Of a stretch of DNA of 64,000 nt, positions 2,841 through 6,392 are shown piece by piece. The stretch is from a bacterium. Lineage in GTDB: Bacteria; UBA8248. Under the pieces are notes generated by a model. The model was not told where the DNA came from, searched no databases, and saw nothing but the letters and a program-made list of their open reading frames with translations. Numbering within the stretch: position 1 is the stretch's first letter; the number at the start of each line of letters is the position of its first letter. A program made the position numbers and the translations under genes. The DNA lies in NCBI GenBank assembly GCA_965199855.1, contig OZ241326.1:2211908-2275907 (forward strand). The letters run 5' to 3'.

Positions 2841-4133
2841 CTATCTTACCACTTTTTCCCGCCCGCCGAAAATCATGGACTCGACTTCTTTTTTCGCCTC
2901 TTCCAGTTCTCTTTTCGCTTCCTCTTGCAGCTCCTTCGCCCGGTCGCGCATCTCGGCAATGCGGTCGGCGATTTCAGTCTGTTTTTTCAGGGGAGGTTTG
3001 GGAATGCTTAGCCTTTTGAAAAGTTCATCGGCAACCCGTTGCTGACCTGCCGTGCCAGAAAAATATAGAGTGGCGTGGTTTCTAAGGGAGCGAAGCCGCA
3101 ACAAACCATAAACGTATCCGATGTTCATTTCTTGCTTCGCTCGAAAAACATGAAATTCCGTTGAACCAAAGCCTATGGCGTTTCTCAACCCCCTGACTAT
3201 CGCTGATTTTCCGTTCTGCATACATGGCGTTATTTTCGCCCAAATCAGATCATTGTCTTGAAACTTGGTATATCCTCCTGATTCTTCCAGCTTTCGAGCA
3301 ACTGAAATATCGGCCTCGCCAAACTGCTCGGATACCCTCTCCATTGGAATGAATGTCGCTAATGTATCAGGCGATAGATGCAAAAAGGAGGTGTAAGGGT
3401 TGATAAAAACACAATCCCCAAACCTGCTCATTGGATATTTGGTGGTTTCTAGGGTATATTTGTTTTGATGGAAAGGCGCATCGAACCTTCCACCCGAAAT
3501 ATCGCTGAAACGCCGTATAAACATTCGGTTTTGCAACGTGTTCTCTTCCGGCTCCGGCTGCTCGATTCCCAATTCACCCAAGAGATAATCATCAATACCA
3601 TCCAGCAATCGCTGCGCCTCCGCCTCCTTCTGTTTCTTGGCGGCGTAGGCGGCATCCATCTTCGCCGCGACCTGAGCTTGTATCTCTCTCGGAGGAATCG
3701 GGATTCTCAATGATTTATATTCTTCAGCGTTGATATTGGGCTGTAATGCTACGCGCTGAATGGCAGCAACCCAGTTTTTATAGGTCTCAAGCTGCGTATA
3801 TGCAAAAACGTAGTCGGGGCTTATCTTTTCTTCATTGACGACAAACCTGATCATATAGCCCGCGTAGAAACAGGGATGCTCTACCTCTTTCGTCTTGTGG
3901 ATATACGTCTTCCCGACTGTTCCGCTTCTAGCGAACAACAAATCGTTGTTCTTCAACAGGTATCTGCTTTCGACGTTTCGGGCTGTTTTTCCGAGTTCTC
4001 GTTTTAACATCCCATATTCGTCAATATCCGTAATTCGGATGTAGCGAGGTTCATCGGATGACCGTCTTTCTATCCCGGCCTCGTTCGCGCCGTATTGAGG
4101 TTTCAACTTCAGCAAACCAGCGAAACGCTCCAC
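2841..4133 (-). CDS. Restriction-modification specificity subunit (HsdS/BcgIB-like, two target-recognition domains)
   Basis: 430 aa with two variable TRDs separated by conserved HsdS central and C-terminal coiled-coil repeats ([20 protein letters not shown]... and [37 protein letters not shown]). It lies in a lower-GC region. Confidence 0.85.
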
Positions 4134-4259
4134 TCGATATTTCGATTGGGTTGTTGTTCTTTGATACGCCGCTATAATCGGATCGAGCCGATCCTCCAGC
4201 TCGCTTCGGCTGACCAGAAACGCCTTGTTTTCATCGCAGGACCGGCGAAGATTGAAGCC

Positions 4260-6392
4260 TCATGTCCCTCCCGCCTCGACGGCTTCAATGAAGCGGGCGA
4301 GCTCCTCGCCGATGCCTTCCAGCTCGTTATTGTCTGTCGGTCTCCCCGCGGCGTCATAGCCGATATCCCCGGCTACCGCCATGAATACCGGAGAATCGCC
4401 CAATACGCTTCGCTTTCGCTCCGCATATTCCCGCTCCATGGTTTCCCGGAGCGCATCGATTTTTCCCCGGCATTCGGCGCCGACCCGCTTTTTCCATTCC
4501 CTATAGTCTTCGGACAGGCTCAACGCTTTGCCTTCCAGCCCTTCCGGATTGTCAAAGCCTCTGAGTTCCTTGATCCGCCGCTTCTTCTCCGCGTCAATCT
4601 CCCGCAACTGCTCCGGAAAATCATGCTCTTCCCTGATTTCGTCCCGTATCTCCGCTTTCCGGTTGCGGATCTCGGCGGTTGCTTCCGAAGTCCGCTTTTT
4701 CAGGAACAGCACCGAGGTTTTCACCCCCGCCCCTTTCGCCTGAAACGCGGTTTGGGGCATGGACGCCACCGCCACGAGGCGGAAATTCTCCTCCATGCCC
4801 TCCCGCGCGTATTGGAGGCTGGAGTTGGTCAGGATGCCGTCGGGTATGACGATCGCCAGATAGCCTCCCTCGGCGAGAAACCTGTGGCATTGCTCGATAA
4901 ACAGAATTTCGGAGCTCTGGCTGTCCCGGACTGTTTCCTTGCTCTTCGGGTTCAGCCAGTCGGCTTTCTTGAGCGCGTAATCGTAGTGGCGCATGTAGGC
5001 TTGCTCGGTTCGCTTGATCTGGGAGCCGAACGGCGGATTCGTGATGATGAAGTGGAAGCGTCCGTAAACGAATCCGTTGTTTCTCGTGAGAGAAAAAATA
5101 TCGTCAGCGGACATCAGCCCGTCGGCGGCGATCACGTTCGTATGGCCGTCATCGTGGAGAATCATGTTCATCTTGGCGGTTCTGGCGATTCGATCGTTGA
5201 TTTCGATGCCGAATATGTTTTTTTCCGCGAAGCTGCGCCAGTGCCTGTCATAGTCTCTTGATTCCGCCAGATCTGCTTCAAAATTCGGATAGTATTCACT
5301 CGCCTGCCGCCTGACCTTGTCAAGCGCGTGAAGCAGAAACCCGCCGCTGCCGCAGGAGGTATCCAGAACCAGCGAGTCATTGGTTATCGGCAGCGCGTCC
5401 ACGATGAACTTCACGATGGGGCGAGGGGTGAAGAACTGCCCGAACTCTCCACGAAAATAAGAACCCATGAAAGTTTCAAAGGCCTTGCCCCTGCTGTCCA
5501 GATCGGTTTTTCCAAAATCGACGCCTTCCAGATAGCCGACGACGGTGCGCAACTTTTCGCAGCCGAGGCGAATATCCTCCTGAAAGACTTCGGGGTCTTT
5601 TTGCCGCCCCTCGGCATACAGGGCGCGGACGCGCTTTTGCAGTCCCTTGTTCGTCTTGTCTTCCGTGCTTTCGGTGAACACCTGAAAATCGTAGGGTTCC
5701 CCCTTTCTCCTGGGCTTTTTCTCGTCCCACATTTTGCAGAAAATCAGCTTGTTCAACTCGTCGAAGGCTAGCGAGGGGTCGAGTTGCCCACCCCCCCAAA
5801 GCGCCTGATGCGCCTGTCTGAACCTTCTCGTCAGCGCGTCTTCCGTTATGGCTTCGAGCTCGAACAGCCTTTGTCCGTTGGCGGAACCCCCGCCCCGGGC
5901 GTATTTGAACCTGGCGAGCCGGCTGACGCCGTATTGCGGGATATCGGGAATGGGCAAGCGCTTCTTCGGCTCTTTTTCGGGAATCTCGAAGCAGGCGTCT
6001 TTTATTCGGGAGGTTACCCAGAAATACCTGGCCCGGACTGTTCCCGTGGCGGCGTAGCTGAAAGCCTGGGCGACGGCCTGCTCGAACTCGGCTTCGGAGA
6101 CGTCCTCCGCCTTGCACTCGACGACGATATGGGCGGATTCACGCTCATCGTCGTTATAGACGATAATATCCGCCTCTCTGGTGTCCGCGCCGATTTTTAC
6201 CGGAACGAACTGCTCTATGCGCTCCGGGGCGTAGCGATAAACCAGAACCAGTTTGAGGAACGTCTCCGCCTGGACGGACTCTTCCGGCCGCGCGTAATTT
6301 CGCCTCTTGCCCTGGCGAACGTAGGTGATGTATTTCCCGTCGTCATCAAACGCGATCAAGCCTTTGTCTATTCCTTCGCGCAACAGATCCAT
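4260..6392 (-). CDS. Fused restriction endonuclease / N6-adenine DNA methyltransferase (N-terminal HsdR-like PD-(D/E)xK nuclease domain + gamma-class MTase); BcgI-A-like Type IIB/IIG enzyme
   Basis: 710 aa. The N-terminus carries the nuclease motifs ADIIV...VVECK...QAFSY (D, ExK, QxxxY as in HsdR nuclease domains). The MTase domain has motif I VLDTSCGSGGFL and motif IV IITNPPF. It sits 126 bp upstream of the S-subunit gene, and no HsdR helicase gene is nearby. Confidence 0.75.
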   Translation of the reverse strand: MDLLREGIDKGLIAFDDDGKYITYVRQGKRRNYARPEESVQAETFLKLVLVYRYAPERIEQFVPVKIGADTREADIIVYNDDERESAHIVVECKAEDVSEAEFEQAVAQAFSYAATGTVRARYFWVTSRIKDACFEIPEKEPKKRLPIPDIPQYGVSRLARFKYARGGGSANGQRLFELEAITEDALTRRFRQAHQALWGGGQLDPSLAFDELNKLIFCKMWDEKKPRRKGEPYDFQVFTESTEDKTNKGLQKRVRALYAEGRQKDPEVFQEDIRLGCEKLRTVVGYLEGVDFGKTDLDSRGKAFETFMGSYFRGEFGQFFTPRPIVKFIVDALPITNDSLVLDTSCGSGGFLLHALDKVRRQASEYYPNFEADLAESRDYDRHWRSFAEKNIFGIEINDRIARTAKMNMILHDDGHTNVIAADGLMSADDIFSLTRNNGFVYGRFHFIITNPPFGSQIKRTEQAYMRHYDYALKKADWLNPKSKETVRDSQSSEILFIEQCHRFLAEGGYLAIVIPDGILTNSSLQYAREGMEENFRLVAVASMPQTAFQAKGAGVKTSVLFLKKRTSEATAEIRNRKAEIRDEIREEHDFPEQLREIDAEKKRRIKELRGFDNPEGLEGKALSLSEDYREWKKRVGAECRGKIDALRETMEREYAERKRSVLGDSPVFMAVAGDIGYDAAGRPTDNNELEGIGEELARFIEAVEAGGT

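Follow-up and report, generated by a model that had tools for sequence, protein, structure and literature searches.

What kind of enzyme is encoded by two genes lodged between icd and ksgA, and can it still be made? The genes lie on the reverse strand of a 64,000-nucleotide stretch of bacterial DNA (GTDB lineage UBA8248; assembly GCA_965199855.1, contig OZ241326.1, positions 2,211,908 to 2,275,907), which we refer to as the window; positions below count from its first letter. One gene encodes a 710-residue protein, RM, and the other, S, a specificity subunit. An earlier note, drawn from the letters of the window, had read the pair as a Type IIB restriction-modification (R-M) system of the BcgI kind, with a nuclease-methyltransferase fusion and a separate S, and not as Type I. 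As judged from sequence comparison and predicted structure, the island probably encodes an ATP-independent Type IIB-like R-M system of the BsaXI class, and in this lineage S has been severed from its native start codon.

The fusion proposed in that note is present. Pfam detects both HSDR_N_2 and N6_Mtase in the one 710-residue chain, and all of the motifs that the note had named (D75, E92-x-K94, Q109-xxx-Y113, motif I, and NPPF) were found and proved to be invariant when RM was aligned with 29 homologues of 64 to 91% identity from many phyla. The invariant positions in that alignment are E37, E38, E73, D75, E92, K94, Q109, and Y113 in the nuclease domain and, in the N6-adenine methyltransferase (MTase), D344-TSCGSGGF, the S-adenosylmethionine (SAM) motif I, and the catalytic N452-P-P-F455. 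When the N-terminal 185 residues were compared by themselves to PDB sequences, no meaningful match was obtained; the nuclease assignment is therefore based on the Pfam match, the conserved motifs, and the fold match of the whole chain. An AlphaFold2 (AF2) model of RM has a mean confidence (pLDDT) of 70.5 overall and 82 to 90 over the nuclease domain. It places helices at residues 569 to 664 (about 95 residues), strands at 670 to 689, and a final helix at 690 to 706. Going by this predicted secondary structure, the C-terminal helices would correspond, in the terms used for BsaXI, to a “knob” without a “paddle.” No target-recognition domain (TRD) was found in the RM chain, and S is a separate open reading frame (ORF), so the protein does not fit Type IIG (the MmeI/BpuSI type); the MmeI_Mtase model scored below its threshold on RM (23.9 versus 27).

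Among solved structures, the closest sequence to RM is RM.BsaXI (8w0p), with an E value of 1e-37 by phmmer against the PDB, compared to about 1e-14 for Type I HsdM; the alignment pairs residues 171 to 572 of the query with BsaXI residues 196 to 627 and spans both connector and MTase. Foldseek gives the same order when queried with the RM model: 8w0p_A at 2.7e-26 over 861 columns, HsdM at about 1e-12, and the Type IIG enzyme BpuSI at 2.4e-8. In BsaXI (PDB 8W0P, 8W2P, and 8W2Q), the connector occupies residues 193 to 348 and the MTase residues 363 to 625, and the essential nuclease residues are E73, D90, E105, and K107 (PMC11997821); the D...ExK pattern of these residues is the same as that of D75 and E92/K94 in RM. 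Both proteins have the order PD-(D/E)xK nuclease, helical connector, gamma N6-adenine MTase, with a helical insertion before the last strand, and both go with a separate S of the layout TRD1-CR1-TRD2-CR2 and with no ATPase. RM differs from BsaXI in its length (710 versus 916 residues) and probably in lacking the C-terminal double-helix paddle, which BsaXI needs for cleavage; a further difference is the disrupted start of the S gene in the window. A knob without a paddle has been reported for BsaXI homologues of fewer than 800 residues and for single-chain RMS Type IIB enzymes, and BsaXI itself assembles as (RM)2S (PMC11997821).

The placement of the island in Type IIB and not in Type I stands, with BsaXI, a Type IIB enzyme, well ahead of HsdM by sequence and by fold; as models, BsaXI and the fused AloI-type enzymes are closer than BcgI. 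Examples of the single-chain RMS group are AloI, CjeI, PpiI, and TstI. Fused homologues of RM share the domain order R-H-M-S with such enzymes, and the fused group has the knob (PMC11997821), but the window has two ORFs, with a TGA between RM and S; here the characterized fused enzymes were compared by description alone. BcgI (A2B), compared by its published architecture alone (PMC11997821), likewise combines a nuclease-MTase subunit with a separate two-TRD specificity subunit. However, the RM proteins of the BcgI group end in a lone EcoKI-like helical tail and not in a knob (PMC11997821), whereas the C terminus of RM appears to carry a knob-like insertion. With the HsdM/HsdS pair of the EcoKI type (M2S), the island shares the MTase fold, the HsdS fold, and a presumed 2:1 assembly, but in RM a nuclease replaces the N-domain of HsdM, no HsdR partner lies nearby, and the similarity is much weaker than that to BsaXI.

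Should the pair nonetheless be read as M and S of a classical Type I system, with an unlinked HsdR elsewhere and a nuclease-like domain that is vestigial or accessory? Database labels would say so: the family goes under Type I M in the PADLOC and REBASE-type models and in most source annotations, S has the standard HsdS fold, and the TIGR00497 hsdM model matches RM weakly. That match, however, reaches 53 bits against an equivalog cutoff of 242.75, and HsdM_N was not detected by Pfam, which finds HSDR_N_2 in its place; the PD-(D/E)xK residues, moreover, are invariant across phyla. The claim of the earlier note that no translocase accompanies the pair held for the proteins, for the 64-kb window, and for the homologue loci that we inspected. 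Pfam finds no helicase domain in RM or S; no HsdR was found in the window, where Mfd (32257-35727) alone is a helicase when the ten largest distinct ORFs with 550 or more residues are considered; and the pair has no adjoining HsdR at any of the 12 homologue loci that were inspected (L001 to L008 and L093 to L096). In all 12, S follows RM on the same strand, directly in 10 of them. In L003 and L005, one or two ORFs come between the genes, and ResIII-family genes that look like separate systems lie 4 to 6 kb from the pair. With BsaXI also far closer than any HsdM, we consider a Type I system very unlikely. Still less probable is membership in a multi-gene methylation-associated defense system (MADS) with mad2 and mad5. 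The best NCBIfam matches are indeed MAD2 (7.8e-86) and MAD5 (1.2e-19), and the PADLOC mad2 and mad5 models match too, but the equivalog scores fall far below their cutoffs (289 versus 720 and 70 versus 400), and MADS comprises several genes, among them, e.g., Mad4/DUF4276. The island has two genes, with no other mad genes between icd and ksgA, and this gene content effectively refutes membership.

Several observations do weigh against our assignment to the BsaXI class. RM is only about 23% identical to BsaXI, and its model is of moderate confidence; the REBASE-derived PADLOC model PDLC03030, “Type I methyltransferase,” matches RM end to end (1.9e-178); and no canonical start precedes the first 42 codons of S, which are conserved, the nearest ATG being an ATA in the window. 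Given this S start, the system may be weak or inactive in this genome.

RM is far from alone. A word-indexed protein search scored more than 7,800 proteins, and the nuclease-plus-connector module was found in 799 representatives of 50%-identity clusters at an E value of 1e-3 or below, with 101 of them at 1e-30 or below. Source annotations of the homologues read “Type I M” or “N-6 DNA methylase,” and the latter is also the annotation of the distant homologues (about 30% identity) that were the only ones found by a plasmid search. The databases therefore already contain the family, but the label that it carries there takes no account of the nuclease domain.

The second claim of the earlier note, a two-TRD HsdS immediately downstream, was correct as to the TRDs. 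Methylase_S matches S in two stretches, and an AF2 model, built on a restored 472-residue sequence (pLDDT, 88.4; pTM, 0.80), shows TRD1 at about 42 to 190, helix CR1 at 191 to 230, a linker, TRD2 at about 277 to 420, and helix CR2 at 424 to 464. With this model, Foldseek returned full-length matches to HsdS 1yf2 (1.4e-16), S.BsaXI (8w0p_C; 2.4e-15), and the S subunit of PacII. Residues 1 to 40 extend as an arm that contains a single short helix (pLDDT, 72 to 82) and mirrors the conserved linker ahead of TRD2. Conservation of this arm across phyla, set against the variable TRDs, leads us to infer that it would contact RM. “Immediately downstream” was less accurate: a gap of 126 nucleotides (4134 to 4259) intervenes and is itself S coding sequence, since S homology continues through it. 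The earlier note also overlooked that the native S start has been lost.

In most members of the family, S starts as ATGA or GTGA overlapping the RM stop, with an N terminus of the form M-S-F-x-L-S-P-x-x-x-K-N-K-(I/V)-F-L-V-...-S-E-L-E-x-R-L-D-P. Compared to the intact homologues L002 and L006 (MSFQLSP...), the window has a 1-nucleotide insertion within roughly 4231 to 4243, about 8 to 11 codons into S. The old ATG now opens a short ORF (Table 1), and the remainder of S, from ...ENKAFLVSRSELEDRLDP..., lies in the RM frame, with a single TGA (4260-4262) dividing RM from S. The 42 codons directly after that TGA contain no ATG, GTG, or TTG. The GTG at codon 43, where the listed S ORF begins, has no recognizable Shine-Dalgarno sequence. 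At codon 29 (4173-4175), the window has ATA where three relatives in the lineage (L008, L007, and L001) have ATG; intact long S proteins of the same TRD1 type have a Met conserved at this position, inside the chain. The fifth known member of the lineage, L009, has TTG codons only, and no ATG before codon 102. All five (the window, L001, L007, L008, and L009) carry the 1-nucleotide insertion, and in all five the S frame is open for 458 to 472 codons.

Other origins for this arrangement were considered. The possibility that a nonsense mutation split an ancestral RMS fusion was rejected, since the first seven codons after the ATG match intact S in the ATG frame and not in the RM frame. Selenocysteine insertion or an alternative code at the TGA was set aside, RM homologues ending at the same position; nor does a structure like a selenocysteine insertion sequence (SECIS) seem to follow, with no unusually stable RNA fold after the TGA (z = 0.53). 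We also note that AUUGAAGCC, which encodes the ...IEA of RM, could base pair with GGCUUCAAU, located immediately past the ATGA (4231-4300, reverse strand), in a hairpin whose loop would take in the Shine-Dalgarno sequence, the former start of S, and the stop of RM; most of the substitutions seen in L001 and L007 are wobble compatible. This pairing may be left over from translational coupling in the intact arrangement. A metagenome scan with the lineage-specific junction 20-mer GGTCCTGCGATGAAAACAAG gave four chance matches in unrelated sequence and no further members of the lineage.

The island has been in this lineage for some time. The cassette occupies the same ksgA/icd site in the four further contigs, one of which (L009) is a 3.09-Mb chromosome from a metagenome-assembled genome (OZ251456.1), and RM in these contigs is 99% (L008), 91% (L007), 88% (L001), and 87% (L009) identical to that of the window. 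The divergence of RM (87 to 91%) is comparable to that of ksgA (80 to 87%); together with the shared site, this indicates that acquisition predates the divergence of these organisms. Foreign composition supports a horizontal origin for the cassette, as the earlier note had suggested, and the occupied site in five diverged members makes the event an old one. Both proteins are under purifying selection in this lineage, with ratios of nonsynonymous to synonymous substitution rates (dN/dS) of 0.17 to 0.27 for RM and 0.10 to 0.15 for S codons 43 to 222. The TRDs, on the other hand, have been exchanged by recombination since the acquisition: the S of L001 (P0156) has a different TRD2 and shares only 58% identity, against 88% for RM, and in L009 it is TRD1 that was exchanged, with RM still 87% identical. 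The GC content at third codon positions (GC3) of S is well under that of RM (0.53 versus 0.72), consistent with repeated TRD import.

How do relatives connect the two proteins? Microcystis and other cyanobacteria carry natural in-frame RM-S fusions of about 1,180 to 1,194 residues (matches of L018, L019, and L020 at 4001 onward; P0086 to P0117), 64% identical to RM, with the junction ...ESGKDSFFLSxDVDKNK.... Shorter fusions of 806 to 1,023 residues also exist (L013, L015, L025, P0092, P0093, and P0120), and these may carry half-size or truncated S domains. The two loci with intervening ORFs carry other genes within or beside the cassette. L003 (“Candidatus Haliotispira prima”) has an AAA_21 ATPase and RloB pair upstream and an unannotated 493-residue ORF between RM and S (L003:7700-15060), and in L005 a ParE-like toxin pair separates RM from S, which at 241 residues is half-size (L005:12154-13332).

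A further kind of junction may involve recoding. Among the best 120 RM homologues, 8 end in ...D(S/H)FF plus zero or one residue, and the junction DNA was examined for 4 of these: L093 (Caldilinea sp. CFX5), L094, L095, and L096. In all four, an X XXY YYZ heptamer stands in phase (TC-T-TTT-TT(T/C) in the RM frame), one or two codons further on, the spacer (6 nucleotides in L093 to L095) contains a 0-frame TAA, a stem-loop of 10 to 11 bp starts directly after the TAA, and the N terminus of S resumes in the -1 frame (FFSLSPD... or FFRLSPS...). The hairpins have z scores of -4.2 to -5.4, with none of 200 shuffles folding as well. Their arms vary between loci while pairing is kept: pairing holds in 100% of the cells, with both partners altered in 6 of 10 pairs. 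When the partner was slid by 1 to 3 columns, 33 to 56% were paired, and none of 500 shuffles reached the covariation score. The -1 ORF opens 3 to 5 codons before the T run and continues for 465 to 486 codons; in L094 its first ATG, GTG, or TTG is at codon 198, leaving the whole of TRD1 without a start of its own. In a rough identity tree, the RM proteins of the four loci do not group together.

On these sequence features, we favor a programmed -1 ribosomal frameshift joining RM to S in L093 to L096, as a reasonably likely reading; transcriptional slippage would be another explanation, in particular for L096 with its T9 run. Phase variation at the T run is unlikely, given tracts that are short (T6 to T9), the same -1 state in all four loci, a heptamer in phase, and a covarying hairpin behind it. 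Termination at these junctions would yield RM and frameshifting would yield RM-S; one RM plus one RM-S has the composition of the (RM)2S enzyme of BsaXI. The arrangement resembles dnaX of Escherichia coli, as regards L093 to L096 only, in the X XXY YYZ heptamer, the short spacer, the stable stem-loop, covarying in these loci, and the short and extended products that would result from one mRNA. It differs in its heptamer, U UUU UUY and not A AAA AAG, and in the 0-frame stop within the spacer, and the window itself has no such cassette. In the searchable literature, we found no description of a programmed frameshift in R-M systems, and R-M systems are absent from two major surveys of recoding.

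How, then, is S made in these five members? Across the lineage, S most likely comes from a downstream internal start and lacks the conserved N-terminal arm. For the window itself, with ATA in place of the nearest ATG, there is a real possibility that S is not usefully expressed. This shades into the view that the cassette is inactive or decaying here, with S untranslated or made only as a crippled fragment and RM, without a partner, neither methylating nor cutting. The frameshifted native start, the 42 codons without ATG, GTG, or TTG, the ATA at the codon-29 ATG of the relatives, the want of a good Shine-Dalgarno sequence before GTG43, and the conservation across phyla of the arm that would be lost are all consistent with decay. 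However, the frameshift is common to five members whose RM genes have diverged to a synonymous distance (dS) of about 0.37, and yet S has remained open and constrained throughout; RM, moreover, retains every invariant catalytic residue. The window differs from L008 at 17 of 3,552 nucleotides, so an inactivation confined to the window would have to be a very recent event. On balance, we regard decay as a minority possibility, though one to be taken seriously.

A less probable idea is that S is delivered by recoding, either by readthrough of the RM UGA (giving an RM-S of about 1,183 residues) or by a +1 shift at CGA-UGA from the ATGA start. In a broader form of this idea, members of the family would make S by recoding as an extension of RM, a single mRNA giving both RM and RM-S and so building an enzyme of 2 RM to 1 S; L093 to L096 would use the -1 frameshift for this, and the window lineage leaky UGA readthrough or the +1 shift, which we consider improbable to the same degree. 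S does lie in the RM frame behind one TGA in all five members, and the old Shine-Dalgarno sequence and ATG are retained; a +1 shift at CGA-U-GAA would restore colinearity with intact homologues. The ATG-to-ATA change at codon 29 is conservative (Met to Ile) if the codon is internal, L009 is without an ATG before codon 102, and the fused and -1-frameshift-joined relatives can be taken as showing that a covalent RM-S product works. Codons 11 to 28, the link, give a dN/dS of 0.11 to 0.13 in the S frame in comparisons with L001, against 0.5 to 0.7 in two control frames. In the comparison of the window with L007, though, the same link gives 1.45, and its dS of 1.4 to 1.6 is far above that of RM, which suggests that the link sequence was imported by recombination and not selected in place. 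At the junction there is no slippery sequence and no Shine-Dalgarno-like stimulator, and CGA is unable to re-pair in the +1 frame. Nor is there a -1 arrangement like that of L093 to L096, with no heptamer present and S in the 0 frame behind the TGA. No conserved or unusually stable RNA structure was found at the window junction (single-sequence z scores of 0.11 and 0.53; covariation term of -0.56 in the five-sequence consensus), where local hairpins enclose only the old Shine-Dalgarno sequence and ATG. An internal start remains our preferred reading for the lineage.

The features discussed here are collected in Table 1. Both ORFs lie where the earlier note had placed them, and the lower-GC island that it described between icd and ksgA was confirmed by composition: RM has a GC content of 56.8% and S one of 47.6%, compared to 67.6% over the window, and both genes also fall below their neighbors in GC3 (0.82 to 0.95 for the neighboring genes). 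A scan of the island for promoters and terminators gave counts equal to shuffle expectation.

Table 1. Features of the R-M island and its flanks in the window, with the candidate frameshift cassettes of four relatives
Feature	Coordinates	Strand	Basis or remark
RM gene, 710 aa, ATG start	4260..6392	-	Stop TGA at 4260-4262 included; ORF listing and domain hits
PD-(D/E)xK endonuclease domain, RM residues 36-152	5937..6287	-	Pfam HSDR_N_2, 1.3e-13
Multi-helical connector, about RM residues 171-300, equivalent to BsaXI H domain	5493..5882	-	phmmer alignment to BsaXI
Gamma-class N6-adenine MTase, RM residues 299-576	4665..5498	-	Pfam N6_Mtase, 7.8e-34; motif I DTSCGSGGF, motif IV NPPF
Predicted C-terminal knob-like helical insertion (about RM residues 569-665), last MTase strands, and short terminal helix; no paddle	4263..4688	-	AF2
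Strong Shine-Dalgarno sequence GGGAGGG just upstream of original S start	4266..4272	-	Read from sequence; kept in 5 of 5 lineage members
Remnant native S start, ATGA overlapping RM stop	4231..4263	-	ATG now opens 10-codon ORF MRLQSSPVLR*
S-homologous sequence GFNLRRSCDENKAFLVSRSELEDRLDPIIAAYQRTTTQSKYR, 42 codons in RM frame, conserved N-terminal arm of S	4134..4259	-	
S ORF, 430 aa, GTG start: TRD1, CR1, linker, TRD2, CR2	2841..4133	-	Methylase_S, AF2, Foldseek
Low-GC island between icd and ksgA	2841..6392	-	Composition and shared insertion site
icd, island flank	1465-2718	-	
ksgA, island flank	6743-7573	+	
Candidate -1 frameshift cassette at RM/S junction of relatives	L093:5125-5215, L094:5140-5230, L095:2249-2345, L096:2499-2590		

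The host is an uncultured bacterium of high GC content (about 68%). In its genome, the island abuts a cluster of the tricarboxylic acid (TCA) or reductive TCA type (515-2718 in the window; L008:7293-13080), with icd, mdh, a class I fumarase, and a pair resembling citryl-CoA or succinyl-CoA synthetase that includes a Citrate_synth_N domain. Elsewhere in the window, four long ORFs of 658 to 868 residues have no Pfam match at 1e-5 (40431-43037, 48886-50919, 56441-58711, and 11288-13264), and some of them may be spurious antisense frames of a 68%-GC genome. The ORF for the carbamoyl-phosphate synthase small chain (25280-27418, reverse strand) has 712 residues, yet CPSase_sm and GATase begin at residue 360; the true start probably lies far downstream of the first in-frame one.

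By analogy to BsaXI, we imagine that one S would bind two RM subunits as (RM)2S, that the two TRDs would read a bipartite site, that one adenine per strand would be methylated and host DNA so protected, that DNA would be cut in both strands to either side of that site, and that the enzyme would need SAM and Mg2+ but not ATP. The cassette was probably acquired horizontally before the five known members diverged, its TRDs were swapped later, and in this lineage the 1-nucleotide insertion severed S from its translationally coupled ATGA start. Activity in this genome hinges on an S protein without a normal start.

More broadly, a large family that spans phyla and is routinely labeled “Type I M subunit” or “N-6 DNA methylase” has the architecture of a self-contained, ATP-independent Type IIB-like enzyme, which bears on censuses of defense systems and on the interpretation of methylomes. 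The family also provides a natural series of links between a restriction enzyme and its S subunit, from coupled genes and in-frame fusion to the candidate -1 frameshift and the broken start with an in-frame stop. If the frameshift is real, it would represent a new use of recoding, that of setting the subunit stoichiometry of a restriction enzyme.

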